Positions 2,975 to 53,099 of a DNA stretch of 64,000 nucleotides are shown here, in pieces; the stretch's first letter is position 1; each line of letters opens with the position of its first letter. This stretch comes from Glaucostegus cemiculus. Its lineage: Eukaryota. The position numbers were made by a program, and so were the translations under genes. The stretch lies in contig CDPCPM010000263.1 in assembly GCA_976551045.1 (NCBI GenBank), positions 3,906,001 through 3,970,000 on the forward strand. Direction: 5' to 3'. Below the pieces are notes generated by a model, which saw only the letters and a list, made by a program, of their open reading frames with translations, did no database searches and had not been told where the DNA came from.

Positions 2975-4170
2975 CGATTTCCCTTAACATCCAGGCAGCA
3001 TTTAAATGAGTGTGGCATCAAGGAGCCCTGTAAAACTGACATCATTGGACATCATTAGCTTAACATTACAGTGGTTGGAGTCACAACTTGCAGAAAGGAA
3101 TATGACTGTTGTTCTTGGAGGACAATCATCCCAGCCCCAAGACATCATAGCAGGAGGTCCTCAGGACACTGTCTTAGGTCCAACCAACTTCAGCTGGTTT
3201 AATGACTTTCCTTCCATCAGAACTTCAGAATTGAGTATGAACTGATGATTGCAATGGTGTCCATTTCCATTTGCAACTGCTGAGAAAGAGCAATCCATCC
3301 GACATGCAACAATATTTAGGTTTGTGCTAATTAATTGCAAGTAACACTGATGCTGAAGAATTGTCAGGCAATGACCATTTCCAGCAAGAGAGTCTAACCA
3401 GCTACCCCTGACTATCACCAGATCATCTACCACCAACATCATGGTAGTAGGGTGGTTACCCCTGACCAGCCATGTAAACAATGGACCTGTTCTTGTAGTC
3501 CATTGTTTTCCAAACTTGTCTTGCAGTTGGTGAAAAGGCTTTCAGATGTCAGGAAATGGGTCACTCACCACAGAACATGTGGCCTCTGTGGTGAGTGACC
3601 CATTTCCTGACATCTGAAAGCCTTTTCACCAACTGCAAGACAAGTTTGGAACTTGACCAGTAACCCACTGCAGAGTGGCTGAGGTATATGCCATTGACAA
3701 AATGCACTGCAGTTAGCTAAGCTTCTGCAAACCTGCAACCTCTACTGCCAAGAAGGACAAAAGCTTCGTGGATATTGGAAACTTTCATCTGTAGATTCCC
3801 CTCCAAGACATATACCATGCTGAGTTGGAAATATATCACCACTGTTTTGACATTCACTGGGTTTAAATAGCACCATAGAATCATGCAGCACATACACAGG
3901 CCCTTCAGCCCATCATGTCCATGTTGACGATTAAGTACTCATCTATACCATTTCAATTTAGCAGCATTTGGTCTGTAGTCTTCTAATCCTTGCATTTCAA
4001 GTGATCTACCTACTTAATTGTGGCACTCCCAACACAACACCATTGTGGGAATACTTTCACCAGAAGGACTGCAGTGGTTCACAACCATGATTTACCACCT
4101 GTCTTTTCAAAGACAATTAAATGGGCAATAAATGCTGACCTTGCCAGCAACATCCAATCAACAAAAAATA
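2975..4170 (+). mobile_element. Decayed CR1/L2-like LINE fragment with 3' tail, containing the fold-back hairpin and a small reverse CR1 tail (about 3875-4010)
   Basis: LQWLESQLAERNMTVVLGGQSSQPQDIIAGGPQDTVLGP resembles the RT 'GVPQGSVLGP' region; tail shared with 26460-26830. Confidence 0.72.
3508..3651. repeat. Perfect inverted repeat, 67-bp arms, 10-nt loop
   Basis: 3508-3574 is the exact reverse complement of 3585-3651; loop ACATGTGGCC. Confidence 0.97.
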
Positions 4171-5057: not shown

Positions 5058-7307
5058 CTACACAAAGATAGGGATTTCAGGTGATAAAAACTAAACACAA
5101 ACAGCTTCACATCCACAACTTCAGGGGCACTTAAGTCTTATTTCAAAAGAAGTTCATGAAGTTAAACATGTTAACACATTTTATCACAAAACATCAAGAT
5201 TACATTAATGAAAATTATATTGTATTTTAACTGGCTATAACATTCCCTGAGAATTCTTATACAAATGCAGCATGCAAAGTCATTCTAATTTACTGTGCTG
5301 AAGATTTTCTTCAGTAAATTGTTATCTCACTGCATAAGAACACACAATACGTCACAATTATTGTTCTGCTGTGAAACTGTCTGTAGGTAAGAAAGAGAAC
5401 CTAAGTTTTAAAATAGTGAAGCAGCAATTATACGCTGCAGAAGATATGAGAACCCTGACTTCAGGAAATGGAACTAGAAAGGAAAGTGGCCATCTTGCTT
5501 TATCAATTACAGTGGGGAAGCTGCAAATATTTTTGATATCATACTAGAGTCAGGAATTGTGTCCTTGGACTGAAAACTTCCTCTGTTATTTGAGGCGAAA
5601 GGTAAGTTGAGTTGAGGAAACTATAAAACAACCTAACTTTCATTTTAGGAAGCTGTTGAAATAGGTTATTGGGAAAAGAATAACTTAGCACTTATACTGA
5701 TGTGGACTGATCAGAAAGTTAGTACTAGGAGGGAATGGCTTTAAGGATGCCACCAGCCTTCTCCATATGCTCATTCTTTGGGTGCAGACAAGTGAATATG
5801 TGTAGGCCATTGAAGAGAGACGAGTCTTTATCCGATGTTCATATCTGCACTTCTTACCACAGGGTACCGAATGGGAAACAGCTGCGCGAATCATGGCCAA
5901 TACTTTTTTCATCTGTTGCCTAGTTTTAAGCATCTGAAGGGCCTAACAAACATTCCACCCAAAACTAATTACTTCCAATAATGAGCAGGGGAAAAGACAG
6001 TACATTTTTCATCTATGTAACTTCAGGAAGAACACTTGTATATTGGCCCACAATGGGAGCTGCAAACATTCTAATCTCACAAGGGAACAAGATGACACTC
6101 CACTTGGAGGAGCAACCTTTGTACAGGATTTTAATGCTCAACGAATTTATTATACAAGGAAATCGAACAGCAGGGTATTTTTTGTTTTGGGAGAATTGAC
6201 TGAAAAAAATTATTTTCTCTTTGTGAAATGTTCATCATCACTTATCTTTTATAATATGGAAAAGAGCACTTTGGTGTGGATTTCTGTAAATTAAAATTTT
6301 TAATTGGATTGGCAAGAACATAATTCAAATGGACTCAGTCGGGCAACATCAGAGTATTCCTTCTAAAAAAAAGTGACAAATAGTCTGACCAGCAAAATAC
6401 TTAGGGTTTAATTGAGTAACATCAATGGAACTCCAACATGGAACTTTCATATGAACACCTAAGCACTCTACTGCTTAAATGTGTAATAAAATTCTCTGGG
6501 GATAGGCTGGGAGTTTTTTTTTTAAATGCATATAACATGCCTAGATACACTGTAATTAGGTAAGAAGAAAAATACCACATCACCACTGTTCAAATTTCCT
6601 CTCATTACATTCCAATTTACCAACACCTGACTTAAGGATGACAAGGAACTGGTACAGGGCAGCACCCAATTATTTACGCCAACAGGTGGCAATGTTAGAA
6701 GAAGAATTTTGAATTCCTAAATTACACTTCAAGCACAATTTAAAAGCACTCAGTTGGCATGATGATCGGTGACTGAAAGTTCTCCAGTTAAAATAGCAAA
6801 CCAATTTTCTCAATACCTACAAAAATGGCAATTTCTTTTAGTTGATTTCAGAAAAATAAAATGTTGGACTAAAGCTTTCCCAGTTTATATTACTGGAGTT
6901 AGAGCTTGTAATTTGGGACTAACTGAGAGAATTGCGATAAGAATACACCTATTACTATAACACCTTCATCAAGAGGTGCAGAAATCTGTTGTTCAATTCC
7001 ACAAACTGGGAACAATAACTTTTAAAACTACCTAAGGAATGACTTCTGTAAAATATTTTCATAAAGCCTTTTCCCACATTTATTAATATGAAGACAAAAA
7101 TGCTGGAACAACTTGGGCAGTCAAACAGCAGCTGTGGAAAGAGAAACTAGCTGATGTTTCATTGACCCGAAATGTTATCTGGTTTCTTCACAGATGCTGC
7201 TTGACTGAGCTGTTCCAGCATTTCTATTTTTGTTTCAGATTCCAGAATCTGCCGTTGTTTTCGTTGTCTTTTAAAGGTATCTAGGAATTCTACCAAAAAT
7301 GCCATAC

Positions 7308-9501: not shown

Positions 9502-10601
9502 CTGGAGAGGAAAAAAAGGCCATGGATTAGATTTAAACAGAATAAACACATTTACATTTTAAAATTAACTATCAAAAGCTCTGTTTGATGACTTTATAAA
9601 CATATGCACACTCCAAGACAATAACAGCCCTTATTACACAGAAGCTCCAAAGCATCAGCCAGTGGCATTAGCTGATTTTGACTGGGACAGCAGTAGTAGC
9701 TTTTATGCCTCTGCACTGTCCACAAACAATTCAAATAACCGCAGCTTAAGCAGAGTTAAAAATGAACGGGTTAAACAAAGACAAAGATGTCCAATCATGT
9801 ATCAGGATGCCTTGTCAACCATATTGAACTTACATTACTTTCTTATTCATGTTTCAACTCATTGACACTAATGTTTATTAAATGTCAGCCAATAAAAACA
9901 GCCTTTGAAACTGATAGATTCATAAAATTGCATTAGGACAAAGTGATAAATTTCTTGAGTTTCAAACCCTTTTGCATTCTATTTTGCAAACATTTTACAT
10001 TCAGTTTGTATTTACTAATTTCTTTTAAACAAAAACATTGGAAAGCATACAATATAATTTCCTGATAAAAGCATAAGCGATTACAGAATATCACCAAATC
10101 TATTTGGTCATTATAAAGGGATGCTAGAATGTTACCTGTGAGCAAGTCCCTCAAAAAAAACTATGAACTTGCAGTATTTTGCCCAGCATTGCTATTGGCA
10201 ACCAAAACAGACAAAGAAGCTAAGTCACTTTCAAAGTGCCCCATTAACCCATTTCACCTGGCCTCGCCCTCTGCCACCTACTCTCCAACTTAAAACCACC
10301 TTTTAAAAAAATCTTTTTCCCAGTTCTGACAAAGGGTCTCTGACTGGCGAGAGTAACCATTTCTTACCACAGATGTTGCCTGACCTGCTGATTATACAAT
10401 GCTACGTGTCTATGATGCTGCTGCAATTAAGTTTTTCTTTGTACCTGTGCATACATGTACTTGTGCATATGACAGTAAACTCGACTAGACTTTACAGCAT
10501 TTTCTCTTTTATGAATTTACTACTTGTACTTTATCTGCAATGGTCCCAATTACCACCTCCCTTTCTTCTCCATACCATCCCCTAAACCTTGTAGTTTTTA
10601 C

Positions 10602-11278
10602 CTGGAGAATCCCTTTCCACAAAGGCTGCAGATGTAAGGTTTGTTGATGCCCCCTTCATGTGACCGCACATGATAACTCATGCGATCCTTTCTCTTGAAA
10701 CGTTGCTGGCAAACTGGACACTCAAACGGCTTTTCGTCCGAGTGCGAAAGTTTGTGCCGGTTGAGGTGGTAAACGTCACGGAATGCTTTGCCACACAGTT
10801 CACAGCCATGATTCTTCTTCACTCGCCTGTTTGCATTCTTGCTGGCTGTGACTGCCGAGGTGCTGCTGGTGACAGTGGAAGTGGAGGCGGCAGTCGTAGT
10901 CAGCATCCCTGCAACAGTCGACACCAGCGACGCCGTGCCACCCACACCGGGCGCCGACGACATCAGTGAAACCATGGTCGGCACTTTCCTCGGCCGTGAG
11001 ACCAACTTGATTCCTGTGTGGCATGACTCATGTCGTCGCAGGTGATAACTGTCTCTGAATGCCTTGCTGCAGTAACTGCAGATCACTGGTGTTCTGGTTT
11101 TCTCCTTCTTCTCTACAGTCACCGTGGGTTTTGGCGCTTCTTTGGGATCGGGGGTTTTTGGGGCTGCAGGCAACGTGGTCACGGGGACTTGCTCACGTGG
11201 CTCATTGACTGAATGCAGTATTGGCAGCAGGTTATTCTGCACATGTTGCTGGTGTTGCTGCTGCGAGACATCAGCTGC
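10602..11278 (-). CDS. VEZF1: VEZF1 coding exon 2 (Q-rich N-terminus, C2H2 fingers 1-3 and first half of finger 4)
   Basis: Acceptor TTTTGTAG|GCA, donor AG|GTAAAA; 677 nt open frame with CSYCSKAFRDSYHLRRHESCH, CELCGKAFRDVYHLNRHKLSH, CPVCQQRFKRKDRMSYHVRSH and CSLCGKGFSR, typical of VEZF1/MAZ. Confidence 0.97.
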
Positions 11279-11477
11279 CTACAAAACACAAGTGAGAGTC
11301 AGCTGAACACTGCTGTACTTCAAAACTGGCTTTTTCTGTACAGATGAACTCATCCAACTGCATCTTGTGAACTTGATACTTATAGTTAAAGCCTTCCACC
11401 TTGGCTTTGTAGTTACAAGCACTTTTGGTTTTCCCTTACCTGCATACCAACTGGTTGGAAGGTTAACTGTGACATGG

Positions 11478-11705
11478 AGACACAAGAGACTGTAGATGCT
11501 GTAAACTGGAGCAAAGAACAAACTGCTGGTGGAACTCATCGGGTTAGGCGAAGGGAAAAGTCAACATTTTGGGTGAAGACCCTACTTAAGGACTCCTGAT
11601 ATCCCGATGTAGGGTCTTGACGTGAAATGTTGACTATCCCTTTGCCTTCACAGATGCTGCCTGACCCACTGAGTTCCTCCTGCAGTTTGTTTTTTTTGTT
11701 TCAAG
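11478..11705. repeat. Palindromic Penelope-pLTR-derived short element
   Basis: GGAACTCATCGGGTTAGGC...GCCTGACCCACTGAGTTCC inverted arms; further family members at about 7095-7250, 10320-10395, 18097-18185, 23225-23320, 23978-24095, 24665-24790, 43200-43265, 62060-62200 and 62805-62925. Confidence 0.75.
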
Positions 11706-12329
11706 CCTGCTGAACTTGTAATGGCAATGGAACACTGGTGAATGTGTCTATAACCAATGCAACCAAAGTCCAGACAAGCATTTTTACAACACACTCCCAA
11801 ATGCCACTCTTCCCCCCCACCACCCCCGCACACAAATTCTGTTCAGATCCAATCTATTTTAGTTGACACAATTTAAGATTGCAATTTGTTCAGGTATTAT
11901 ACTGACATTGTTTCAGACCATAATTTTAATGATAATCAGAGTCTAGACATTTGGACATAATACTGGCAGGCTAGAAGCAGAAGCACCCAGTGCAGCTTTA
12001 AAATAATGAATTCTCTGGACATGGACAATGCCTGCAAGGCCAAGCGTAACGTCAGAGTTAACTGAGAAGCTGGCAGTAGGTCTTCTCCAAGATTAGCTGC
12101 AGTCCTTGTAATGAGTGTGATCTCATAGATTACTGACTGAACAGAAACAACAGGTAGCCAAATGCAACAGAGTTAGAACTGTGTGCAGTTTGGGGGTGAT
12201 GACATTCCCTTGCCATTATTACACAGGAGAATAACAATAGCGTTCAAGGGCTCAGTGTCTTGATGTCTGTTAAAGTTATCTTGGCGAGTCACTATAATAC
12301 ATACTGCAGGTCACACATACTATAACCAT

Positions 12330-14460
12330 AGTATGGTGGTGATGGAGTGAATGCAGAGAGAGTAACAATCAAGTGTACCAGTGTCAAGCAACTTGAAAAT
12401 GGCCTAATTTTTAACCAATCCAAGCATTTTCCATCATGCCACTGCTTGATCTAGAGCACTTGAAGAGTTAATGGTAACCTGGGTTAAGACAACTCTTCTC
12501 TGCTTTTGGTCAACATTACCAAATGGGAACTTAATGGCCTTCCACTTTGCTACCAACACTCGTCTGCTGCTTTAAGGGTCACTGTGGCAGCTTCATTATC
12601 AGAGAATGATACCAACAATCAAAGTCCTATTTCTGGCCTTACCAATAATGAAGCAGCTGAAAAAAATACTGAGCACACTGTCCTGAGAATTCCTGGGAAA
12701 CTTCCACAGAACTTTTACAGCTTCAACAGTGCCAACCAGCTAGATGGGTTTCCTCTGTTCCCCAGTCACTCTGAGAAGTGCCCCTTTCTTTTGATGGCCA
12801 CCTTGATGTCAAAGGCAATCATTCTCACTCCTTCAACGACATTCAGATCTTGCATGCACATCCACAAAACCGACCACTTTTTGCAGAAAATGAATTAAGG
12901 ATTGATGAGATTATTGTAGGGTAGATGCTACTTGATTAAGTTATCAATGACATTATCACTTCCATGACGATAGGATGGTAACCGCCCAGGTAATATTTAT
13001 CTTAATTGTTGTGGATAGGTCACATCTGGATTACCTTCATTATTGTTGGGTGGATCCCAATTATTACTGTACTGAACAGTTTATAGAAATTAGGATTAGG
13101 GTCGGAGGACCTTTCATTCCTTAAGCTTGTCGTCATCATCATAAGTGACCTCACACTTCACATCTGTCTTTGCTCCCTATCCTCAGGCACACTAGTTAAT
13201 CTCAGATTGAAAATTATCAACCAGCCCAGCATTTATTATAGTTTGCCAAAGACTATTCTAAACCTCCACCACAATTTTGTAGAAATATTTCTGCTTTCAC
13301 TTGTTAGAGACCTTATTCAATTTTTTAAACTGTGCCCTTGTTGCTAGCCTGTGGAAACAGCTTCTTTCTATAGAATTGTTTTTTCTTAATATCTTGAAAA
13401 CTACTAATCATCACTGCATATTCTTAATTTCAAGTAGTACACATCCAGTTTGTGTCCAAATAACATTCTCCCCAATCAACATGCTTCTCAGGACTGCTGA
13501 CCGTACCTTCTCGACGTGGCTTAGCCAGGGCTTTGTATAGCAAAAACAATTTCTACCTTCCTTGTACTTTAGTCCTCCAAATACAGTGACCAGCATTCAC
13601 AATCTTTATTTTTAGTACAAGACTACTGGTAGATGTGCATAGAATGCCACTCCATCCCCAATGTCTCTGTCAAACCTTTACTATCACAAGTTTTTCACCA
13701 TTTATTCATTTTAGGTCTGAAGTGAATGACCCCATATCTATCTATACTGAAACCCATGTTAGTTTTGCTCATTTAAATCTATTAATATCTCTGTAAAGTT
13801 ATACTTCCATCCACACTGCTTACAATGTGGCCCATGATTGTGGCACTGCCAAACTTAGATGTGGCTTTCTATCACATGAACCAAATATAAATATGGTGAT
13901 TTGCTGCAGCTTCAACACTGATCCTGGCAGGAAATCACAAGTCACATCATGCCAATTTGAGCACCAGACCATTAATCCTAGTGTTGCCTGCCACTCAGCC
14001 AATTTCCTTAACAGGTCAACAGGCTGGCTTCAATTCTACCAGTTTAACTTTAGATAATAGCCTTTTATTATAGGACTTCAAATACTTTCTGCAAGTCCAT
14101 TTGAATGACATCGATGGACTTCCCCGCTGTACTACTGTCACCATCTCCTTAAAAAAAGGCACTGTTATTAGACAGGACCCACTCTTCTCTGATGCGCTGA
14201 AAATCTAAGGTATTCAGGTGCTCTGTTCTTGATTACATACCAAAGCAGTTTCTCATCAGATTTACAGATTAATTGGTACCCTTTTATCATTCTCACCAGC
14301 ATAAAAATTCTACCAACCTTTTACTCCAGTTCTCCAAGTGTACGATTTTCCAATCTAATGAAATGGTTCCCCAATCGGGTGAACTTTGGAAGGTTATTGG
14401 AGCATCTTTAATATTCTCACCTCTCTAAAATCTTGCAATAGAATCATCTATCTGGATGCA
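12330..14460 (-). mobile_element. Highly decayed reverse-strand LINE (CR1/L2-like) fragments
   Basis: Reverse-complement similarity to the LINE relics elsewhere in the window; no intact ORF; boundaries approximate. Confidence 0.5.
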
Positions 14461-14464
14461 TCAT

Positions 14465-14966
14465 GCTTATGCTCTGCCCAGGACTGCAAGAAACTGCAGA
14501 GAGTTGTGGACGCAGCCCAACACATCATGGAAACCAGCCTCCACTCCATGGAGTCTATACCTCTCGCTGCCTTGGTGAAGCAGCCAACATAATCAAAGAC
14601 CCCACCCACTTGGGTCACTCTCTCTTCTCCCCTCTCCCATCAGGGGGAAGATACAGGAGCCCGGGGGCACATACCACCAGGATCAAGGACAGTTTCTATC
14701 CCACTGTGATAAGACTATCGAACGGTTCCCTTTTCCAATGAGGTGGACTCTTGACCTCACAACCTACCTTGTTATGATCTTGCACCTTATTGTCTACCTG
14801 CACTGCCCTTCCTCTGTAGCTGTGACACTTTGCTCTGTATTCTGCTATCGTTTTTACCCCGTACTACCTCACTGCACCGTGTAATGAATTGATCTGTATG
14901 AATGGTATGCAAGACAAGTTTTTCACTGTACCTTGGTACAAGTGACAATAATAAACCAATACCAAT
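14465..14966 (+). mobile_element. Rex-Babar-type LINE 3' end
   Basis: CSAQDCKKLQRVVDAAQHI...YTSRCLGEAANIIKDPTHLGHSLFSPLPSGGRYRS...TTRIKDSFYPTVIRL, then a 3'UTR ending AATAAACCAATACCAAT; close copies at about 21450 and 25440. Confidence 0.85.
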
Positions 14967-17900
14967 CTGGTCATGGGGATCACTCATTTGTGCCACTATT
15001 TCCTTCTTTACTCCTATTTTTGTTAACGTTAATCTCACCAAGTTCCTGCCAGATACCTTTTGTTTCATATGCTACACTGAATGCATTACATTCATCAACA
15101 CTATTAAATATGTTTACTGCTAAATTTACCAAATATGAATCATTACTAAATTTAATATGGCTTGCTCTACATCTGTTCTGAGATACTTTTTGCAGAAAAC
15201 TCCCCTGAATATCAAAGGAATTTATTTGACAAGGGGGTAGCCAGTACAGGTTACATCAAATCCTCGGCATCTGCTAAGTGGCATCCAACCACTTATTAAT
15301 ATGAAGCAGAACAAACCACATGACAAAAGGATTGCAACCCATGTTGAAGTTCTTCCTGGAGAATCATCTACACAGAACTTTAAGCTAATGCTTCTGGAAA
15401 CTTGACCATGAAGTGCAGCATATCTAGTTGTCCATCAGCACTCTCAACTCAATAGAGCAATAGATCTTTCCTTTGACTTATTGGATTTAAAGACATTCAG
15501 CAAGTTTTAGCTTGTTGCTTCTTATGTTTGGTATTCATGCAGTCAGAAGTCAAGAACTCCTTATGCTAGGCATGACATAGCTCCTGCAACATCTTCTGAT
15601 CAATCTTTCATCCCATTTCAAAGCTCTGATTTGATGATCAATTGGTGGAGGTGGGAGGTAGCAAGGTACAGATTGTAAAATGTTCAGGCTACTACTGATG
15701 GCCCACAGACACTCAGCCTTAGGACTAGGTATACTCTAATGTACTGTGCTGCTGCAAAAAGTTAATCTTCATGGCACCTATCCCTTGTGTATATATGCCT
15801 ATGACAATAAACTTGACTGTATGGGTCTGACTAAGACACTGTATGCCACAATGTCCCACTGTAATAAGGAGTTTGTCATCACATGGACTGTGCAATGGCT
15901 ATTCTTATCAATACTGACACCAACAGGTAGATGTTAAATAGGTGGGAATAAAACAAGTACTGGATCCTTCATCAGATGGCCCATGCAGACTCTAGCACCC
16001 ACGTCATTCAGGATACTTTAGTACTAGCAGGTGCATTCTCAAGTCCCCTATAAAGAGTGAAATGCTCACTTTTGCTTCCCTCGTCTCTAGCAAGTCAAAT
16101 TCAACATGGGGGAATATGATTTGCCAGTTAAGATTTGAGGGACTGGAGAGGATGAGGGGTAACAAGAAAATCAGGAGTTTACTCAAACTTGTTTGACCTG
16201 AAACTATGAGACTTCAAGGGGTCAAGAAACAATGCTGATGCTGCCAGAATCACTCCTACTTTGCTATGGGACTCACTGCAGGGAGATTTTCTTACAGTTA
16301 AGGTGCTGCTTCCTCTGTTGCTTGCAGTTGAGATGCAAGACATTGAGAGCTGATAGCACTGCAGCCATGTAAACAACATGCATAACATAAGAACCCATGA
16401 CACAACCAATAAAGTGAATATGATGCTACAAGTACAATGTCAGGCTGTTGCTTGATCAGCATAAGGAGAAAAGAGAAAAAGACAAAAGGCAATCTGGTGG
16501 GTAGTGAAGAACATGGCTTTAAGAAGCATGCTGTCAATGTACTGACTTGCCTTATCCACATGACTAATGCTGTAGCAGGATACATTAATCTTTTGAGCAG
16601 TTACAATCACCAACACTTTAATCTTTCTGACAAAATACAATCAGAATAAAAAAAGCAGCTTTTGTGGAGTAGCTGCACTCAAAAAGTTACCTCAGGGCAT
16701 AAGCCATCAAATAACATTTTCATTAATAATTTAAAGGGGCTCTAAGAGAGTTTACATGGAAGTTCAGTTTCTAAAGATGCAGCCAAGTTTGGAATAAGCA
16801 CCCTTTTATAAAGTGTACATAAAACTATTTTATTTGTACCACATGAACTTGCCTGACCTTAGTTGTGGTGCTACTTTCCAAGTACTCTTCAGTGCTTGGA
16901 AAGATGGGGAGACCATAACAATAGCCAGGGCTTTAACTTTCTACCATCCACTACGACAAAGTATAATACACCCATCATGGAATAACTTGGCTCACATTCA
17001 CCGTCTAGGCTGATACACAGGAGAGTAGTTGTTTCCATGAGATGCAATTGGCTGCTGCAGACACACTTGGAAAAATACCCAGCAACAGTTACTATGTTGA
17101 GGAGAGTTGACGAGAAGATTGCAGAGAGAAAAGATCAGTAGATGTTTAAGGTTACTGATTACATCACTACACTCAATCATGCCAAGTGTCATCTGAACCA
17201 CACAAACAACCAGAGTTTTAAAGCAGGCTCTTCATGAGAATTGCAGCGTGATCATAATAACGGCTGCAATTACATCTGAAAGAAAACATAAGCTATGTTT
17301 GTGTACTTGCAAGTCCTGTATGCCCAAGAGCAAACAAGTATTGCTCACCTGTGCCAAAACATTTTGTCCATTTAAGATGCCAGATCCAGGCTCCGAATCT
17401 GGAAAGCTACCTCTGTGCACCACTATCTTGCATTTATGCAATTAATTGATTCCGGTCTCTACATTGGTAAGCTCTGAAAACAATGACCTATTGTTCCATA
17501 CATGTGCAGATGCCGTATGCTGGCGCTGTGAGCGCTTCAACGATCTGAATGCACAGAGAGCAACTGACAGTGTGCCAGTTTTATCTATCAACATCTTTGC
17601 GTCAAAGCAGCAATGTTAGCATAGCAAGTTGGATCAACACATTCACAAGGCATCAACTGAACTGAAATTCTGACCTTCTACAGGGACTTACTTTTAAAAC
17701 AATCTTTCTGCAATGCAGATCTTTGAATGAGATGTACATTTTGGTTGCACTGCAGGCAGAAAAAGAATGCTCATTTGATCTGGAAAAAGCTGCACTTTCT
17801 TCTCCCCATGAATTCAAATTTAAAATGTTATCACTTGTCAGTGGTTAATAGGACAGAGCTTTGGGTGCAAGGAACATGGCAGAGCTGGTGGGTGGGATCT

Positions 17901-19189
17901 ACATTTTCAAACAGCAGCCTTGATGAACCAAAGTGTAATTTACAAATTTCAAATTATCAATGAAAGTTACTTTAGGAAGCATACTCTTCCCGAATCAAAT
18001 CAATTCCAAAATGTACATTAAATACTGGAAATGAACTCAAGTCAGACAACAGATGCTTCATAGCAGTGACCATTTATCAGAAACCTCAAAAGCATTCTGA
18101 TGAAAAGTCACTGACCAGAAACACTAATTCGATTTCTCTCTGCCCAGATCCTGCCCGGCCTATGGATTATTTCCAGCATCTGCAATGTTTCACTGTTCAA
18201 TTATGTACACAGTTCAACTGATTCAAAATTAACATTCCAGGAGCTGCTTTCATAGGCTAAGCTGGGAATGCAGAGCAACATAGAAGACTGGAGACTAGTT
18301 ATGATACAAGCCTCAACTACAGAGAACACAAGGAGAGGACATGAGTGTAAACTCCATGGGGGAGGATAAAAAAGCCTTTTTCTTTTGGATTCTTTTTGTA
18401 CTCATTACTGTGGGAGGTAAGATTCACTCTCCTTCAAGGTAACCTCATGAGTTCAACAGGAAAAACTGCAAATAAGGAGAAAGAGGGATGATAAACAACA
18501 CTGAAAATTCTCCAGCTTCATTGTTTGCACTCAAAAGGCCACACCAAGAAACATAAGCTTCATTGCGAATGTCTGAAGTAACACAAGTTCGGACATCACG
18601 AGAATGTGAAAAGCAGGCATCAACATCAGAGTCTCAACATCGTGTCGAAATTATGCATGTTTTTGAAGCCTCCCAACAAGTTTTTTGGCACAAGATTCAC
18701 CTATGCATACAGAACAACAATGACTCACATAATTCCTTGATGTGAACATGTGGCCCTTTGATAAACTTTAAGACAGCTGCCATCCTCTCTCAGACTGTCA
18801 CCCAGCTCAGGAGCACTCCCTCACTTGATTATATCTCTGCTTAACCAATCATTGGCAGAACATGTCCAGCCATGACTGTTCCCCTTTGGTCCCCTTTCCA
18901 TTCTCAAATACATGTGCTCTCGAGCAGTCCTCCCCAAAGACAATGCGGATTCCATGCTGGCGATACACAATCTCCATCCTCTTTGATCCCTCCCACATTA
19001 GCTGTCAGACACCCATTCTTGAATTTACTAAAAGTATTGGCCTTGCACTGTACCCTCGAGACCAATCAGCACCCCTACCTCAGACCCCATATTGTCTTTT
19101 TTAAAGTTAATCTGATCAGCTTTATCTTCTACTTCAGCATTGCTCACCTGGCCTGTATCAGCTCATCTAACATTTGAAAAAGCCATCAG

Positions 19190-19447
19190 TAAGAAGCACC
19201 ACCATCTGGGACAAGCCCTCTTCTCATTACTACCAGCGAGGTGGTGGTACAGGAGCCTGAATTCACTCAACAATTCAGAAACAGTTTCTTCCTTTCTGCC
19301 ATCAGAATTCACAATGGTCCATGAAACTACTTTGGGTTTTTTTGCACTATTTTGTGATTTATAATAATTTTGTGTCCTTGCACTACTGCTGCCACAAAAC
19401 TACTAATTTCACGTCATAGAAGACTGTGATAATAAACCTGATTCTGA
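19190..19447 (+). mobile_element. Second Rex-Babar-like subfamily 3' end
   Basis: HHLGQALFSLLP..WYRSL motif; tail GATAATAAACCTGATTCTGA; reverse copies at 37918, 56628 and 60940. Confidence 0.7.
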
Positions 19448-21449
19448 AATATTTGCCAATAGGTTGGACAATTTCTTCACTCTCCTGGCCAGCTTCTCAC
19501 CCATTATTTTTATATACTATACCTCATCCAAAACTCTGCTCTCACTAAACCACATCAAATGACCTCATTCTTTCTTGTCTACATTTGCTCCCAGTCTCCC
19601 AATTTCTCCATTAAAAATCCTGTGCTCCTGTTTATGTCTCCTTATGGCCTTAAAAGACTTGTCTAAAACTTCAGCTTCAGCATCTTTTGCATGCTTCCTC
19701 CTCCTTGTAGTTCTTTAGCCATAGTGCTTATGGCTACACAGATCTCATTCACTGGCATTCCCTCCTTAATCCCATCTCCTGTACCCATCAAAAGGATGAA
19801 TTTTGAACATAATTTTGGCCATATGTTCTTCACCTCAGTGTCTGCTTTTGTTTGGTTGTGCCTCTGCTTATTAAAAGAGCAGAGAAAAATATTACACTTG
19901 CAAAGCATCTTATCAGATTTGCAGTATGGAGTCAACTTAGTCCCTGAAATTTTGGGAAGAAACACGCATGAAATTTCAACCGGTCCATTTCACCAGAATT
20001 AATCCTGTAAAAATATGGAAAATTACAAATTATGGTTACCAAGGAAACACTAAATGATTGGAATTGAGGTTTTTTTTGTAACAGGTGCTCAAACTTTTGT
20101 CTTTCATGGAGCTTTTCAGAGTGAACTGCAGTCAGAGCAAAATAACCAGCGACTTATTTCATTTTATCCTTTGCAATTCCATAGTGAAGGCATTGATTCA
20201 TGCAATATTGCTGAAGTAATTTGTCTAGGTGGGTCAATCTTCACCAAACAGCATAGCTTTAAACCACAGGGCTGAAGCTCAAACTTCGTAACCTAACTTT
20301 AACAAAGAAACATTTTCCAGGAATGACTAGTAAATTTCTCTCTCAATGGACATATGTTTATATATCCCTGAGCCCAATGGGTGCACTGAGATCTTTCCAG
20401 CTGGCACAGCTTGGTACCAAAACAGACACAGTCAGCCACTGAACCATCAGGGAACTAGTTATATTTTTGTAGAACAGGTTACTATATTTTCAAAATTAAT
20501 AACTGCAGAAGTGGAAGATAAAGCTGATCAAATAAACTTTAAAATTAAGATAACGATGTGCCCAAGCAGTTATGCGTGCTATTTTTTGTGTGCATCTTGC
20601 TGCATTGCAACATGGGAGATTATTACATTTTCAAAAGGTAGAGCCTTTCTGATAGCAGCAAGAGCCTGACTGCTTGTTCTAAACATTACAGATGCCATAA
20701 CAATACCTACAGCAGTAGAGTAGTCCAGCTACCATCATTCATCTCACTGTTGTAATGTGGTCTCCGTGTCAAGTGGCTGCCACATATGCCAACGTAAGCA
20801 ACAGTTCAAAGTAATTCAATATATTTTTGACATGTTGAGTCCTACTAAAAATACAGTTTAAAATGCAGAACTCATTTTCATCCCTTGCTTACCCAAATGC
20901 CAACATTCTACTTCACCCTGTCATATCTTGCCATTAAGTTCAGCGTAAAGATTTAAGAAGTCCAACACTAAAAGATCGCACATTGATGAACATTTAATTG
21001 TCACTGAATTAGAAGCTAATAATCAAACTAGGGGAGCGGGTCCACACTTGGGCAGGAGGTAAAGAGCGTGATACTGCAGCAAAAGGACTGGCAAATGTAG
21101 AGATACACAGTACTAATATCCCCAAAACTTCAGCCAATCCTGTGACCATTGTACATTTAGGTCAATTGTTCATACCAAGTTAAACAATTCAAAATATGCC
21201 AATTTGAAGCATTCTTAACAAGAATTTTCCTTTAAGGAAGTGTGCTTGCACTTTGTAATGACACTGTAAACAATGACACAGTACAGTAGTACACATGAGT
21301 GCATGGGGAACAGTGTGCTATTTAAGCTCAATATAATTTGATAACAGTCCCTAGAGTTCAGTTGAATCTGATGATAAAGAGCATGGGTGTAGTGCCTTGC
21401 AGGGTTTGCTCTTTGGTGGGTACCAAGGAGGGTCTCATTACTGTGGATC

Positions 21450-21800
21450 TCTTCCATCGGGTAGAAGATACAGGAGCCTGAGGGCACGTACCACCAGGCT
21501 TAAGGACAGTTTCTACCCCACTGTGATAAGACTATTCAATGGTTCCCTTACACACTGAGATGGATTATGACCTCACGATCTATCTTGTTGTGACATTGCA
21601 CCTTATTGCACTGCACTTTCTCTGCAGCTGTGACACTTTACTCTGTATTGCTATTGTTTTTACCTGTACTATAAACAATGCAGTCTGTACTAATTCAACG
21701 TAACTGCACTGTGTAATGAATTGGCCCATATGATGAGTAGGCAAGACAAGTTTTTCACCGTACCTCAGTACAAGTGACAATAATAAACCAATACCAACAC
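21450..21800 (+). mobile_element. Rex-Babar-type LINE 3' end (5'-truncated copy)
   Basis: High similarity to 14635-14966, same AATAAACCAATACCAA tail. Confidence 0.85.
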
Positions 21801-24469
21801 ATACTCTAACTTGATGTGTCCACACAGGCGATCTGAATGGACTCCAGAGTGCCTGATATCTACCAGCTTGTAGCTATCATTTCTACAGGCATAAGTTCGA
21901 CATAAGTTTCAGTCATATTTTATTTCAGAAGGAATTACAAAGCATCACAGTTACTTCAGCTTAATTATTATGCCAGACAACATATTCCACCCAGGGTGTT
22001 ACTCATGAGTGAACTAATGTAGGGTAAGCCCCATAGGCATTGAGAAGGATGTTCTCTGTGACCTTCTGCACTGCCACCCACAGTAGCTAAGTGCACAACA
22101 TGACATGGGAGTGTCTCCAAGAAATAAGCCTGCACACCCTTCAAAATGCTTCTGCATTATTTGCTCCTTCTCCCAATTTGATACAGTGCGGTTCTCCAAG
22201 AAACTCTGTTCCTAACAGCATGGAAAAGCACTGACAAACATGTTGTTTACAAGCAACAGAAAACTTCTATTACATCCAAAAAATTCCAGTTTTTCCACAC
22301 CATTCAAACTAAACACTGCCTCCATAGCTAAAGTCTGATCTGATGACATAATTAAAAGAAAATTACAATTTGAGCCAATCAGCTCAGAACCAAATCACTC
22401 CCTGGTAAATCCCCACAGGCGCGTGTCAACCAAGTTTGTCTTCAGCTCATAAAAGGCAGTGCAGGAAAGCCTGGCTGTTAGACAAGGCTCTGAGATAACA
22501 GCAGCAGAGGAAATCTAAAGCGACAACAGAATTTACCAGCTGCAACAGAATCTACAAGGCCAGTATTGGTTATCAAACCACAATTAAACATTTCAGCATG
22601 AATTCTAATATGAAGTGGGAAAACCATAATCAGAAACCTATACCATTTGTAAAAAAATAACAAGATTATCCCCAAGTTAACTTAGCTTTCAGTCCATTAA
22701 AAACTACTGGGTCATTCAGTTAGTCCTGACTTAAATAATTTTAAGTTTTTATGATTCTGTAAAAATCACTTGTCTACATTACATGTATAAGATTTAAAGT
22801 AAAAAATTGTCCTCAATGGTTTGAAAGGTAAATATTTAAGGGTAGGGAACCCATTTCTCCTGGTAGGGATATTTTCCACTCAGATATGGATGTGTCTGCT
22901 GGGCAGTCCTTCATCCTGGCTGACAACAGCTTCAAATGTTCAATACCGGTCCAGTGTGCAGTTTCAGTAAATCTCTAATCACTTTTACAGGATTTGTTGC
23001 CCAAGTCCAGCATTTATTACCCCATCCCTGATTGCCTGAGAAGGGGATAATGAGCCGTCTTGGCCATTCTCAACCTTCAAGTAACTTATGAAAGTATGTA
23101 ATTTAATCCGATCATGAGTTGGAATTCAGATGTGGCACTAAAACCTACAAGAGGAATTAATAGAAAAAGAAACTGCCAGGATTCCTGCTGCTATAAAGCA
23201 ATAGGACCCACAAAAGTACAGGAATAAGTCTGTTTCTCTTTCCACAGACCTTGTCTGATCTGCAGAATATGTCTAGTATCTTCTATTTTTATCTCAGATT
23301 TGCAGCATCTGCAGTATTTAAGATGCAAGTATGGCAAATGGATAAGGATATAGTCAATCCACATTGGAATAGTCATCCTTTGCCCTCCAGGTTAAAACAA
23401 TTTGCCATTGAATAGAGTCTAAAGTCAGACGTAACTAATTGCCGTTGGCAAAATTCGAGAGCAAAAGTCTACCCAAGAAAACAAGATTACTAATTTCAAA
23501 GCAGTGGAGAAAACAGTAAATGTCTATAAGTTTCCTATAACTTGAGGATTTTTGACAACAGGTTAAACGTTTATTAACATTCTGGTTAACAGTTTTCCTA
23601 TCAGCTTTTCTTGAAAAGAATTCTCATTGTAATTTATTTCCCAGCATTCCCAACATTAATTTGAACGAGATGCTAATGATGTTGGCAGAGAACCTCTCTA
23701 GGACAAGTTACTGAACCAGACTATACAAAGCAACCAATCATTCCAACATCCTTCAGCAACTTTCAATATCAAACTGGTACAAGCTCCTCCCTCACAGAGC
23801 CAAACCAGGTAATTCCACAGAGGTCACCGACACCAAGTAACGTTCAGAAAAATAAGGGAGATCAAATCAGTCTCGATCTTTCAGTTTAATTGCAATAAAT
23901 ATAGTTTCCTCTGTAATTAACTTTGTGACAAGCAAACAATGAAAGACTGATTAAAGGAGGATAAACACCAAAGGAGACACGAGACTGCAGATGCTAGAAG
24001 CTGGAGCAAAAACAATCTACTGGAGAAACTCAGTGGATCAAGCAGCATCTGTGGAGGTAGATGGTTGACGTTTCGGGGTAAGACCCTGCATGAAGCATTA
24101 AAGGAGTCTGCAGGTTAAAAGCTCAGTGGAACTGACCAACAATGTGGCAGAGATACTATAATTACTCTCAATAAGACTAGTGAGGAGAATGGAATGGGGG
24201 AGACACAGGAGAAGAGGATAGGATTCCTATTGCCAATTTCTACCTGCCCATGATTGGGAAGGACATGTTCTTAGTGGTGAGGTACTCTACTAACACAGGT
24301 CATCAGGTCAAGTAATTCAAGGCCACTTTGGTCACTGCAGTACAGAGGCTTGCCAGTTGCCATGAAACCATACTCCAGTTTGCCATTTCCTTTACCAGAT
24401 GAATCAAAACTGGACAAAAATGAAAAACAAAAAAAAATGCACATGCTGGAAATCAAATAAAAATACAGA

Positions 24470-24660
24470 ACAAGCTGCCACAGGAAGTGGCTGAGGCAAG
24501 TACAACAACATTTAAAATATATTTGGATAAGTACATGGATAGGAGGGGTTTAAAGGAATATGGACCATATGCAAGCAAATGAAACTAGCCTGGTGGGCAC
24601 CATGGCCAGCAGAGGAAAATTGGGCCAAAGGCCCATTTTCATAATGCATTACTCTGACTC
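24470..24660 (+). mobile_element. CR1-type LINE 3' tail
   Basis: AAGCTGCCAnAGGAAGTGGnTGAGGCA...ACATTTAAAA...GTACATGGA...GGGCCAAAGG, shared with 33450-33630. Confidence 0.72.
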
Positions 24661-25439
24661 CCAAAGACAGAAAATACTCGGTAGGTCAGGCAGCATCTGT
24701 GAAGAGATAAACAGGATTAACATTTCAGGTTGGTGATCTGTCACTGACCTGAAACATGAAATCTGTTTCACTCCACAGATGCTTGCTGAACAACTCATTC
24801 CTTAGCAGATAAACTGTAATGTTCTTGCAAAAAGTATGCTTGTTGCTTTAATACAGCAAATAAATTAGATTTACAAAGAAACACTTAAGGCATTGATCAA
24901 CTTCTCAAATATGTCCACTAACGTCCTGAGTTCTCCATACAAAACCCCTGCAGAAGTGGGGTCAAGCTCCATGCATCCTTTAGGTCCCATCCACCCAGCA
25001 TCTTCATTCGCAGTAACTCCAAATCTTTCAAAGGTTGAGGGTTCTCCAAACTTTCAACCTCTCTACATATTCACCAGTCCTGGGCTATTCCTTCATGGTG
25101 TTCCTCACAATCAGAATTTCAGCCCACCTTCTGGAATCTCCTGGCTTGGTCAGGCAATTTCCCAACTGCCTTTTACCAGACAATTCCCCACCCACCCAGC
25201 CCCAGCCTGCCCAGTCTCTTCCCCATCTGTTCTGCCACTCATCCACAACTAGCTCAGCTTGTCCTTTACCAACAAGTTGTTGGACCCATTTCTTGCCCAA
25301 ATAAAGGACTGGGGTGATTTATGTTAAAAGACCCCACACAACCACAAGCTGCTATAACACATCAAAATAGAGGCAGAGCTGTCAGCCATTCAGCCCCTCA
25401 AACCAGTCCCATCATTTAATGACATGACTGAACTATGAC

Positions 25440-26040
25440 CATTATGTAAAAGCCATGGCCAAGAAAGCTCACCAGCACTTCTATTTCCTCAGGAGGCTAA
25501 AGAACTTAAGGTTGTCCCCTTTGACTCTCTCCAATTTTTACAGATGCCCCATAGAAAGCATCCTATCTGGATGTACCATGGCTTGGTATGGCAACTGCTC
25601 TGCCCAGGACAGCAAGAAACTGCAGAGTTGTCGACACAGCCCAGCACATTACAGACACCAGCCTCCCCTCCTTGGACTCTTTACCTCTCGCTGCCTTGGT
25701 GAAGCAGCCAGCATAATCAAAAACCCCACCCACCCAGGACATTCTCTCTTACGGGAGCCTGAGGGCACATACCACCAGACTTGAGGACAGCTTCTACCCC
25801 ACTGTGATAAGACCACTGAACAGTTCCCTTATACAATGAGATGGACTATGACCTCACGATCTACCTTGTTGTGACCTTGCACCTTATTGCACTGCACTTT
25901 CTCTGTAGCTGTGACACTTTACTCTGTACTACTATTGTTTTTACCTGTGTACTGACTCAATGTAATTGCACTGTGTAATGAATTGACCTGTACGATTGGT
26001 TTGTAAGAAGTTTTTCACTGTATCTCCATACAAGTGACTA
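25440..26040 (+). mobile_element. Rex-Babar-type LINE 3' end
   Basis: AKKAHQHFYFLRRLK...FYRCPIESILSGCTMAWYGNCSAQDSKKLQ, the characteristic C-terminal domain; same 3'UTR as the 14465 copy. Confidence 0.87.
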
Positions 26041-26459
26041 TAGCAATACATCATAAATCAAAAATTCATTACCGATTAAAAAGTAATAACTGGCCTCACA
26101 TCACCTGCTTTTTACAGCAGAGTTCCAAACAGCTACAACTGTTCCACATGGAAATGTTTGCTAACTTTTAACCCTGAGAAGCTTCAATTTTAAACCCAGT
26201 TCTTCTTGCCCTAACTTCCCTGGAGAGTGGAGATAGTTTTCCCAACTTACCATGACTCACTGCTAGTACTTTGACAATGCTTTTTTTTAAAGAGAGTCCA
26301 AGTTTATGTAATCCCTCTATAATTTAAATCGTCACATCTAGGAATTGTTTTGGTAAATATAAGCTGCAGCAATCCAAGGCAATCTTTTCCTAAAGGGTTT
26401 GGTTCTTTGCCCTATGCAATTTTCGGCAAAGCAGCCCACCTATTTGGTACTCCATTCAC

Positions 26460-26830
26460 AGGCTGAATATTCCTGCCCTCCAGCAGCCCACTGTGGCTGG
26501 AATGCACATCTTCCGCAAAATGCACTTCAGTTACTCATCTAGGCTACTTCAACATCACCTCCCAAACCTGCACTCTCTACGAAGAGCAGCAGGTGCAAGG
26601 AATGGCTACACCTGCAAGTTCCCAAGTTGTAGGTCAGCCTGACTTGGAAATATATCACCATTCCTTCTTTGTTGCTGGATCTAAAGTCCTGGAAATCCCT
26701 ACCCATCCCAAAAGCACTGTGAGAGCAACTTCTTAACAGTCTGAAACAGTTCAGCAGTAGCTCACCAGGTTGTCAAAGGCAATAAATACTGGTCTTAACA
26801 GCACTGCCCACATCCTGAGAAATGAATAAA
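26460..26830 (+). mobile_element. CR1/L2-like LINE 3' tail
   Basis: Shares TTGGAAATATATCACC and GGCAATAAAT(G/A)CTG with 3825-4140; ends AATGAATAAA. Confidence 0.65.
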
Positions 26831-28132
26831 TACAAAACAACAGTGGAAGGACATAACTCAGGAACAGATGCTATTTTCCCTCTTCTTGAATATTTACTGA
26901 TGGTATTTGGTTCCACAACTGTACTTCAAATTGTTTTCTATCTGACAATATTGATAATAAGGAAGAGCACTCCCAAATCCAATTCACATATAAAAGTTGC
27001 AATCTACATATACACTCACAGATGAGGCTGCTAGAGTTTTTGCCTGATTTTTTTTCTCCTTCCTAACTCGAGGAATAATGCCTGATTATTTCTACTTCTT
27101 CACCAGCTGATTCAACAACAGATATCAAAGCTGGTCAAACATGACTAAGGCTAAAGCTAAATTTAATCAGATGGTCACCTTCACCGTCTCCAGCATTTTA
27201 TGTCAAATTGCAGGAGCAAAACACTAGCTAATACCATAAAGAGTGGAAGTGCAAAAATGTGCAGGGATTGTAATGAAATGCAATGCTGGCAGATTTACAC
27301 AAACTATCCACATGCACCTGTGGATATCCTTGTCACAAGGAAAAACTGATCACCAAGCAGCACAATATAGACCGGATTTCTTGGTTGTTTAATCACATCA
27401 GTTGTACACAATACACACAGTGAGAAGTAGTGTTAAATTCTAAGAAAAACTGCATTAAATTAATGAAACTGGAAAGTTGGAAATTAGCACCATCAATGCA
27501 TAAATCTCAACTGAGATTTATTAACTTGTATCAATAAAACAGATCCCTATTGACAAGACCATCACAATTTATATTGATATTTTTTGAAAAGCAACAAAAG
27601 CCATACATTTCAGTAATGATTTTTTTTAGCACTGAGAACAAAGGTGATCTTTTAAAAGCAAAAATGTTGGAATTAACCCGTTTAGAGTGTACGAAATACT
27701 TCAATCATTGCAACAAGTTCTAAGGTCATGGCACATGAAGAAAATTTAAAAACCATATTGCTTGCCATCAACAGATTTAAAACACAGAAGAAATGTTACC
27801 AATATTTTGCATACTTAGAAAAGCACTAAACCAGAATACCAAAATAGTGGATGATCCGCATCACACTTAAAACAAACTAAATAAAACAGTTCAGCTGCGT
27901 AGTGAAATCAAATGCATTTTTGTACAGAATCAAAAGATTTAAAATATACACAACAGGATCAAAAATAGTTGCCGACATAAGAATGGGTACGTGTGGGTAT
28001 GCGTTGGACACAATTTGAAATTATTCTGCCACTTATTAGATGGGGGAGGGTGGAGAAGAGAACTCAGTAATGAATTGAAGCAGTTAATACTTAAAAATAA
28101 CAGATATTTGCTTTTACAAATGGAGAATTTAA

Positions 28133-28700
28133 TGCAAAGTTAATTGTTGGGCTGCAGTTGAGAATACAGTGCAAATGTTGGCCTGGAGTTGAGAGTAAAT
28201 AAATACACTGCAAATGTTGGGCTGCAGTTAAGAGTAAATAAATACACTGCAAATGTTGGCCTGCAGTTGAGAGTAAATAAATACACTGCAAATGTTGGCC
28301 TGCAGTTGAGAGTAAATAAATACACTGCAATTGTTGGGCTGCAGTTGAGAGTAAATACAGAGCAAATGTTGGGCTGCAGTTGAGAGTAAATAAATACAGT
28401 GCAAATGTTGGCCTGCAGTTGAGAGTAAATAAATACAGTGCAAATATTGGCCTGCAGTTGAGAGTACATAAATACAGTGCAAATGTTGGCCTGCAGTTAA
28501 GAGTAAATAAATACAGTGCAAATGTTGGCCTGCAGTTAAGAGTAAATAAATACAGTGCAAATGTTGGCCTGCAGTTTAAAGAAATACACTGCAAATGCTG
28601 GGCTGCAGTTGAGAGCAAATGGGCTGCAGTTTGGAATAAATAAAGGCACTGCAATTGTTGAGACTGCAGTTTAGAGTAAATAAACGCAGTGCATTTGTCG
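28133..28700. repeat. Minisatellite, 39-bp unit, about 13-14 copies, degenerate at the edges
   Basis: Unit GCAAATGTTGGCCTGCAGTTGAGAGTAAATAAATACA(C/G)T repeated head-to-tail (unit starts at 28171, 28210, 28249...). Confidence 0.97.
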
Positions 28701-28977
28701 GGTTTCAACTCGAAATGAATGCCCTGCATTCTCGTGTGTTTTGGTGTGCAGGGAATGGAAGTGTTCTGCTAGGTGGGTGTTGCACTGCCGGGTTGGAGCC
28801 CAGCTGGGTGCCCGCCCGCCCGCCTGGGCCATGGTGCCGCTGCCCGGCCGGGCTTGTCTGCAGCTCAGCCCGGCCGGAGCGGCACACACAACAACAAAAA
28901 AAACCTCCCTCCTCGCCGCCGCCTCCCGCCTCCTCTCCCCCCGCCCCCACCGCCGCGCCCGCCATCCGCGGCCTCAC

Positions 28978-37917: not shown

Positions 37918-38097
37918 CAGAATCAGGTTTATTATCACTGACATGTCATGAAATTTGTTGTTTTGTGGCAGTACAGTGTAAGAAATAAAAGAATGACTAT
38001 GTTACAAAATGAGTAAATAGTGCAAAAGAGGAATAAAGTCGTAGTCTTCATGGACCATTCAGAAATGTGATGGCAGAGGGCAAGAAGCTGTTCCCTG
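37918..38097 (-). mobile_element. Second Rex-Babar-like subfamily 3' end
   Basis: AGAATCAGGTTTATTATCACTGACAT...GAAGCTGTTCC, shared with 56628-56760 and 60940-61160. Confidence 0.72.
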
Positions 38098-52022: not shown

Positions 52023-52443
52023 CTATTGAATACGTGAAGAGAAATGTTCACTACTTTCAAATGTAATCCTGGAAAGCCACTGAATAAGGCTAATACTATG
52101 TTAGTTTCTTCTCCGCCGAAAAGAATTACATCCTTACGCCACTCAATGGTGACTTTCCACCAGAAAAGTTTTCTTTTGTTAACGATAGTGCTGTAATCAC
52201 TAACTTTTCGTTAAAGACAAAAAAAACGAGGTTTAATTACAAAATATCAGCACAATAGATTTGCCATTACAAAAAGGGCCAATTCCCATATTAAATCAAA
52301 GATTGATGAATTAGCTGTAAACAAAAATCCATTTGCTTGAGCCATTCCTTGTGATTATTTTGCCTTACCTGAAGCTCCAAATGAACAGTTAAGTTATGGC
52401 TCTTAGTCATCATCTTTAAGCCTTTCAGAAAAAGGTAACATAC

Positions 52444-52616
52444 CTCATGCGATCGAAATTTTGTGTTATCCAGCTTTCGTACTGCATAGGTCATATCTTC
52501 TTTGCGAACAAACTCCACGACACCAGTCCCATCACGAAAAACATCAGCGTAACATACATCACCTGCTTCCCGCATGTGATCTTTCAAATCTTGCCAACTA
52601 CCGCTGGGAGGAAGCC
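52444..52616 (-). CDS. SRSF1: SRSF1 coding exon 3 (pseudo-RRM with SWQDLKD)
   Basis: Acceptor CTTTTTCAG|GG, donor GAG|GTATGT; [58 protein letters not shown]; 173 nt. Confidence 0.98.
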
Positions 52617-52702
52617 CTGAAAAAGATCATTTTGTAATTAAAAACTAGTAGTTGCTGTTCAAAAAACAAGCAACGAAAATACCATTGAAATCTCAACCTC
52701 AC

Positions 52703-52890
52703 CTGAAACCATCACTCTGTATTCTGAGCGACGGGAGGGGGGTCCATATCTTCCCCTCGGTGTCTGACCACCACCTCCACCACCACCACCCCCTCTTCCA
52801 GTCCCTCTCCCACTCCGCGGAAATTCAACGCGCAGACGGTAGCCATCGTAATCATAACCATCACGACCATACACAGCATCTTCGGCGTCT
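52703..52890 (-). CDS. SRSF1: SRSF1 coding exon 2 (end of RRM1, Gly-rich linker)
   Basis: Acceptor TATTTTCAG|A, donor CAG|GTGAGG; [62 protein letters not shown]; 188 nt. Confidence 0.98.
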
Positions 52891-53099
52891 CTGAAAATAC
52901 AGCGAAATGTTGAAATTCACATGGAAATTGACAAAGAACAATCACGGCAACAGAACCACCTTTAAAAAAAAAAGCCAAAAGCATTATCATTCCAAATTCC
53001 TGAGAAATTGAAATCGACACGCATTTTGGATAGCCATGTGCTCTACAACGTGCCTCGGGACAAGGATCAGTAACACCGTACTTCATGATCAGAATACAA

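Follow-up and report, generated by a model that had tools for sequence, protein, structure and literature searches.

Does the segment at 18092-18185 carry a hammerhead ribozyme, what kind of element left it there, and is it likely to act today? An earlier note on this DNA, made from its letters, had read the segment as one member of a dispersed family of minimal hammerhead cores derived from the pLTRs of Penelope-like elements (PLEs). We examined the whole stretch, a window of 64 kb. The string CTGATGA...GAAAC was present letter for letter at 18097-18122, and the six other copies named in the note were recovered no more than 2 nt from the places it gave, with C3 of the core at 62128, 40945, 56530, 10326, 11604, and 24094 (minus strand). 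An iterated nhmmer profile yielded 23 matches at E<=1 in the 64-kb window, whereas no match in 20 shuffled windows scored above 10 bits; the dispersed family is real and well in excess of chance. Twenty-two copies were taken into the family analysis, after weak matches at 34293, 55082, 30189, 41736, and 57597 and tail-only fragments had been excluded from the count, and 18 of the 22 reached E<=1e-3 with a profile from which their own unit was excluded. At least two subfamilies, A and B, were distinguished by the length of loop II and by pair 2.1-1.1. Eleven of the 22 copies lie inside introns of VEZF1, five in the sense and six in the antisense orientation.

The two boxes by themselves occurred at chance level. 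CTGATGA together with GAAA was found three times in the window, compared with a mean of 1.3 and a maximum of 5 in shuffled sequence, and with N7 left free the count was 4 versus 3.4 in the shuffles. A strict minimal-hammerhead descriptor found 0 sites in the window (shuffled mean 0.03), and none of the seven matches returned by an Rfam scan of the window at E<=10 belonged to a hammerhead family. The case for a ribozyme therefore comes from comparison among copies and is independent of any single one. Other sequence collections were searched with the 18-nt tail motif, which gave 0 loci in viral contigs; 20 loci in metagenomes and 6 in prokaryote genomes were rejected as chance matches, scoring at most 21 bits and nearly all matching hardly anything outside the motif.

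The origin of the family was traced through two decayed open reading frames (ORFs), both on the plus strand. The remnant at 55397-56205, interrupted by frameshifts and stops, retains the thumb region of a reverse transcriptase (RT), a Cys linker, and a GIY-YIG region to the C-terminus. A 110-residue piece of it, with X at three stops, matched 18 proteins (E<=1e-3), which carry motifs of an RT, a Cys linker, and a GIY-YIG nuclease. The second remnant, at 39852-40610, is 5'-truncated and comprises the C-terminal part of the RT, the thumb, and the Cys linker (tblastn with the homologue P0004, E 9e-13). The score of P0004 to Atlas clusters containing PF26215, GIY-YIG, RVT_1, and HTH_animal was 0.96. 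The CX2-5CxxC linker between RT and GIY-YIG is complete in the homologues P0002, P0003, and P0004, and the 55 kb remnant keeps two of the three linker Cys residues, the third being lost. Neither the remnants nor the homologues received a name from searches of Pfam, NCBIfam, and PDB sequences; a 50-aa nuclease piece found nothing in a word-index search of proteins, and a search of viral contigs with P0004 found no relative. Judging from the Cys-linker motif, the element was probably a Neptune-type PLE, or one of the Neptune/Nematis type.

Downstream of each ORF remnant, and on its strand, the profile located a hammerhead copy, at 56481-56632 (C3 56530) and at 40898-41044 (C3 40945, with a 3-nt deletion in the core region). 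Since these two copies lie directly downstream of decayed RT/GIY-YIG ORFs, the copies are the 3' pLTR ends of a Penelope-like element, and the Penelope pLTR origin proposed in the earlier note was confirmed by this linkage. A weak, older copy lies just past the ORF stop, at 56240-56331 on the plus strand (C3 56245; 6.6 bits leave-one-out only). The remnant at 39.6-41.0 kb also has an inverted pLTR copy at its 5' end, at 39601-39766 on the minus strand (C3 39722), with a 5-nt deletion in helix II. Heavy 5' truncation and an adjacent inverted copy at the 5' end are both described for PLEs (10.1101/2021.04.23.441226; also the legend of fig. S4A in PMC4209133). The 55 kb remnant is flanked by a direct repeat of about 83% identity, at 55233-55358 and 56329-56462; the upstream repeat has no hammerhead and, from its sequence, may be a partial pLTR.

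When the copies were anchored on C3 and G12, a shared layout was obtained, consisting of a 4-bp helix I, CUGANGA, one bulged A, a helix II of 4-5 bp, and GAAA, followed by two bases, then U, H, and the 3' strand of helix I. Read across copies, this anatomy fits the consensus of metazoan PLE minimal type-I hammerheads in PMC4209133, with boxes, helices, and UH in the consensus order and spacing, as the earlier note had claimed. Among 11 copies, CUGANGA plus one extra base was the majority state at each position (C3 kept in 10/11, U4, G5, and A6 each in 9/11, G8 in 8/11, and A9 in 6/11). Downstream, 21 copies were scored, and G12 was kept in 17, A13 in 17, A14 in 19, A15.1 in 17, U16.1 in 18, and H17 (not G) in 20.

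Much of the variation in the core is CpG decay, which was seen in both directions at three dinucleotides. Position 15.2-16.2 reads CG in 1, TG in 9, CA in 6, TA in 2, and another dinucleotide in 3 of 21 copies; position 11.1-12 reads CG in 2, TG in 13, CA in 2, TA in 1, and another in 3 of 21; and position 7-8 reads CG in 1, TG in 5, CA in 2, TA in 1, and AG in 2 of 11. The palindromic CG at 15.2-16.2 would be best explained as ancestral and lost by CpG decay. The palindromic AACGUU consensus that had been read by eye is thus sound as regards its CG when this decay is allowed for, but the CG is a minority state (1/21 copies), and the unweighted majority consensus of the palindrome is AUGU or similar, not ACGU.

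Subfamily B copies have U-A at pair 2.1-1.1 in 7/8 cases and subfamily A copies have C-G there in 2/3, which reads as one compensatory event between the subfamilies. In an unadjusted alignment of 14 copies, the proposed helix register paired 59% of cells versus 22-41% in slid registers; the helix II tabulation omits three indel-bearing copies. With the same 14 copies and unadjusted alignment, the observed percentage paired was reached in 145/500 shuffles and the covariation score in 101/500, and the covariation that the earlier note wished to see checked in helices I and II was not significant within the window. Non-CpG core cells matched the majority in 108/128 cases versus 427/545 for the tail (p = 0.14). 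The core has thus been kept no better than the tail, and there is no sign of selection on it after insertion. Subfamily A also differs in its core. In the three copies of this subfamily that cover the box (11604 plus, 11590 minus, and 24094 minus), position 9 reads T, T or C, then A, so that a pyrimidine is found in 3/3 and A9 in 0/3. This pyrimidine may be a natural variant of the core or an old defect common to these copies; A9 changes in hammerheads cost 10-100 fold (PMC4075628).

The copy at 18097 was delimited by cross-copy alignment and fold as a decayed minimal type-I hammerhead at 18093-18129 on the plus strand. The 5' strand of helix I lies at 18093-18096, the C3-A9 box at 18097-18103, the bulged A at 18104, helix II with its loop at 18105-18117, G12-A15.1 at 18118-18121, position 16.1 at 18124, H17 at 18125, and the 3' strand of helix I at 18126-18129. 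The pLTR tail, with an internal deletion, continues over 18130-18200 on the same strand (profile, 41.7 bits with the 18097 copy left out). The first box is kept; the defects are a C at 16.1, an A.A mismatch at 10.1-11.1, and a helix II with three of five pairs, and the four-mer at 15.1-16.1 is not palindromic (15.2-16.2 = CA). In PMC3088659, core changes and mispairs adjoining the core are criteria for rejecting hammerheads, and in PMC4075628 a change of U16.1 is among the mutants selected against a ribozyme. Compared with functional hammerheads, which have an intact core and paired 10.1-11.1, 1.1-2.1, and 15.1-16.1, the 18097 copy fails.

An inverted partner arm of this copy lies at 18020-18085 on the minus strand. 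It is more decayed, with its box at 18080 and with G8 and A15.1 changed, and by profile alone it is weak (5.1 bits, leave-one-out). The hairpin formed by this arm and the 18097 copy had a fold z of -4.44, with 0/200 shuffles as good, and C3-A9 of the 18097 copy are predicted to be paired within it (P unpaired <= 0.01). The segment 18092-18185 lies inside VEZF1 intron 1, antisense to the pre-mRNA. On its sequence, the 18097 copy is almost certainly inactive, and it is without evident function. The other copies are in a similar state, since all 11 full-core copies fail the filters of PMC3088659, 10 of them by core changes and the 62128 copy by multiple mispairs; the doubt about activity expressed in the earlier note was well placed. 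When single copies were folded, the full hammerhead was the minimum-energy structure in 1/9 only, namely 11590, whose box is broken.

The host gene was identified from its exons, which are on the minus strand. Exon 2 of VEZF1 runs from 11278 to about 10600 (zinc-finger exon 10598-11278) and shares 89% identity with a VEZF1-like protein of the bamboo shark, with the next VEZF1 matches at 63% or less. The first coding exon, at 29010-28978, has its splice sites in place, and intron 1 occupies 11279-28977 between the two. Several other features were observed in and around the gene. Within intron 1, close to the first exon, a 39-bp tandem array of 12 copies with 90% matches lies at 28163-28620. Downstream of the coding part of VEZF1, at 3508-3651, two perfectly matched inverted arms of 67 bp enclose a loop of 10 nt; this repeat is outside the hammerhead family and has miRNA-like matches in Rfam below threshold only. 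It may represent a recent fold-back insertion, a locus for a hairpin RNA, or an assembly error. Three copies of a second dispersed family, which we take to resemble the 3' end of a LINE, lie at 14500-14967, 21449-21799, and 25624-26059, at 72-91% identity. A third family is found at 19384-19475, 37914-38036, 56625-56750, and 60942-61070, and one of its copies adjoins the 56.5 kb pLTR copy at the 3' end of the latter. An RRM splicing-factor gene, presumably SRSF1, has exons at 52291-54343 on the minus strand.

Reads of relatives, not of the same species, were aligned to 17700-18500 at 80% likeness. In one relative's DNA run, depth was about 55 over 18105-18185 versus about 1 on average on the flanks. 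The paralogue reads of the relative had T at 18124 (U16.1) in 39/54 and T at 18117 in 40/57. In a relative, one contig runs across 18049-18500, which shows that this relative shares the 18.1 kb insertion and that the insertion is older than the split. RNA reads of relatives on 17700-18500 numbered 11 and 74; all were less than 90% alike, covered the repeat only, and continued into other sequence, and they therefore derive from paralogues. In these two RNA runs, which gave paralogue reads only over 17700-18500, neither joints nor a pile-up of read ends were found. A word search across sequencing runs listed no RNA run and gave no run containing over 17% of the words, a result that carries no information on expression.

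The profile also located a series of inverted units and single copies. The inverted units comprise 2211-2417, with both arms 5'-truncated within the hammerhead; 7084-7270, in a downstream VEZF1 intron; 11472-11704, a subfamily A unit in VEZF1 intron 1 with C3 equivalents at 11590 (minus) and 11604 (plus) and a fold z of -7.77; 24649-24802, also in intron 1; and 62091-62212, whose plus arm (C3 62128) keeps 12/12 core letters, with two of five pairs in helix II, two of four in helix I, and no palindrome. Among the single copies, 10272-10394 (plus strand, C3 10326) has the upstream UTR and lies antisense in VEZF1 intron 2; 23968-24101 (minus strand, subfamily A) is the only copy keeping the ACGU palindrome, and its box is broken; and 23219-23329 (plus strand) starts about at the predicted cleavage site. 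The copy at 42258-42299 (plus strand) is short, whereas 43188-43273 (minus strand) and 62842-62928 (plus strand) are 5'-truncated, the last with a tail-only inverted arm just upstream at about 62790-62848.

Most copies have their 5' ends inside the ribozyme. Relative to G12, 17/22 lie between -25 and +2, a stretch of 28 nt upstream of the cleavage site, four lie farther upstream, and one is at the cleavage site, although these counts come from n=22 copies, the upstream sequence is poorly covered by the profile, and a few weak tail-only fragments exist. The upstream UTR is absent from 18/22 copies, all of them short. The cleavage site is spanned by 21/22 copies, which is in line with uncleaved RNA as the main substrate, as described for Poseidon in vitro (PMC11167929); copying from a re-ligated circle would likewise span it. 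In six short inverted units, every one of the 12 arms begins within the ribozyme or at its edge, and the G12-G12 distances in these six units are 9, 14, 25, 39, 54, and 59 nt. Because the six junctions all differ, the inverted units are not copies of one master hairpin, and each was formed at its own insertion.

Could the likeness to a hammerhead have arisen by chance, inside a repeat that belongs to a different class, for instance a SINE or the tail of a LINE? The chance frequency of the boxes, the empty descriptor search, the lack of a hammerhead match in Rfam, and the non-significant covariation would be compatible with this, but both boxes, the bulge, the helices, the position of the palindrome, and UH follow the published order and spacing across copies, and the motif stands downstream of PLE ORFs, where it would be expected; we consider such a coincidence very improbable. 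The earlier note had gone further and proposed a separate, non-autonomous, retrozyme-like element, whose short hammerhead units would be transcribed, cleaved, circularised, and amplified as units. This proposal would account for the 18 short copies that lack the upstream UTR, and a preprint (10.64898/2026.07.22.740005) derives non-LTR retrozymes from PLE pLTRs and reports them in the single chondrichthyan genome that it covers. However, retrozymes take the form of direct tandem repeats, 150-450 bp in size (PMC7229834), and 0/5 tandem arrays in the window come from the hammerhead family. The six differing junctions are what is expected of PLE 5'-truncation plus inversion, and just one of the 22 copies begins at the cleavage site. 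Moreover, the inverted partner is antisense, so that the core is sequestered and there is no second sense copy with which to form a dimer. Given the missing tandem array, the junctions, and the antisense partners, the proposal was not upheld, and we regard it as improbable.

The position of 11/22 copies in VEZF1 introns and the presence of the 18.1 kb insertion in a relative might instead suggest an intronic ribozyme domesticated to regulate VEZF1 pre-mRNA, as discussed for the amniote RECK and C10orf118 hammerheads. This is the least credible of the alternatives, and hardly to be expected. The 18097 copy lies antisense, with C at 16.1, a mismatch at 10.1-11.1, and a box that is predicted to be paired. 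None of the five sense copies is whole, each being broken or truncated, and neither strand is favoured (5 sense versus 6 antisense). The RNA reads of relatives (11 and 74) come from paralogues and show no end pile-up.

We therefore interpret the copies, with high confidence, as fossil 3' ends (pLTRs) of a cartilaginous-fish Penelope-like retrotransposon, probably of Neptune type, that had at least two subfamilies and carried a hammerhead now decayed. The active ancestor would have had a pLTR with a minimal type-I hammerhead made up of a 4-bp helix I, CUGAYGA, one bulged base, a helix II of 4-5 bp opened by G-C, GAAA, and an ACGU palindrome replacing helix III, and cleavage would have followed H17. 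Under the model proposed in the literature (PMC4209133; PMC6765202), two motifs in one tandem transcript may have paired via the palindrome and cut slowly, possibly aided by the element's own protein. The copies in the window would have been made in trans by the RT and GIY-YIG nuclease of the element through target-primed reverse transcription, presumably initiated about 100 nt 3' of the ribozyme. Synthesis would mostly have stopped early, and the 5' end would often have received a second copy in inverted orientation, giving short hairpins. After insertion, the copies would have decayed neutrally, CpG sites first. No young intact hammerhead copy was found in the window, and scans of other sequence collections gave chance matches only.

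The clustering of 5' ends at the ribozyme raises a more speculative idea. In elasmobranch PLEs, the folded, uncleaved hammerhead might be the main site of RT stalling and re-priming, making fold-back insertions of about 200 nt, and subfamily A may carry a position-9 pyrimidine variant. We hold this as a tentative and rather unlikely suggestion, as the numbers are small and PLE copies are in general skewed to short lengths. If the stalling reading were true, the ribozyme would shape the structure of insertions independently of cleavage. A genome with very many copies could reveal whether the ribozyme fold sets the points of truncation and inversion, and also whether active elements carried the position-9 variant. 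According to PMC11167929, mutating a PLE hammerhead did not affect insertion in vitro.

Several known systems can be compared with the family described here. The amniote RECK and C10orf118 hammerheads (PMC6155905, PMC3088659) share the intronic position, but they are intact, conserved, and active, whereas the copies in the window are broken and the 18097 copy is antisense; the intronic copies are inert and, as they stand, of little significance. Non-LTR retrozymes (PMC7229834; 10.64898/2026.07.22.740005) have in common a type-I hammerhead, a non-coding nature, and kinship with PLE pLTRs. They are described as direct tandem repeats giving linear and circular RNA monomers, in contrast to the dispersed single copies and inverted pairs with variable junctions found in the window. 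Poseidon of Anolis (PAc; PMC11167929) likewise has a hammerhead in the pLTR and an RT start about 100 nt downstream, and the unprocessed RNA reported as its main substrate is matched by the 21/22 copies spanning the cleavage site. It differs in belonging to another clade, with no Cys linker in the description available to us, and in the kind of evidence, its activity having been observed in vitro, with protein needed, whereas ours comes from sequence. With Neptune/Nematis EN+ PLEs (10.1101/2021.04.23.441226), the window shares the RT, the Cys linker, the C-terminal GIY-YIG, heavy 5' truncation, and an inverted 5' copy, although it has C-terminal remnants only and the 55 kb remnant is without the third linker Cys.

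The closest match is to the PLE minimal hammerheads of PMC4209133. Both have type-I topology, the CUGANGAH box and its additional base after A9, and a G-C pair opening helix II, with helix III absent; the palindromic 15.2-16.2 of the published motifs is probably the ancestral state in the window. In both, the motifs are mostly dispersed single copies from truncated PLEs, with some close pairs on opposite strands. Subfamily A differs from the published consensus by its position-9 pyrimidine, and the copies in the window are all decayed. We found no cartilaginous fish among the species listed in the supplement of that report, and our literature search for elasmobranch PLE hammerheads found no paper, although Lunse et al. 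(RNA Biol 14:1499) may list examples from sharks or rays. The window thus adds an elasmobranch PLE family to a class of motifs described in 2014, and its ribozyme is of a kind already known.
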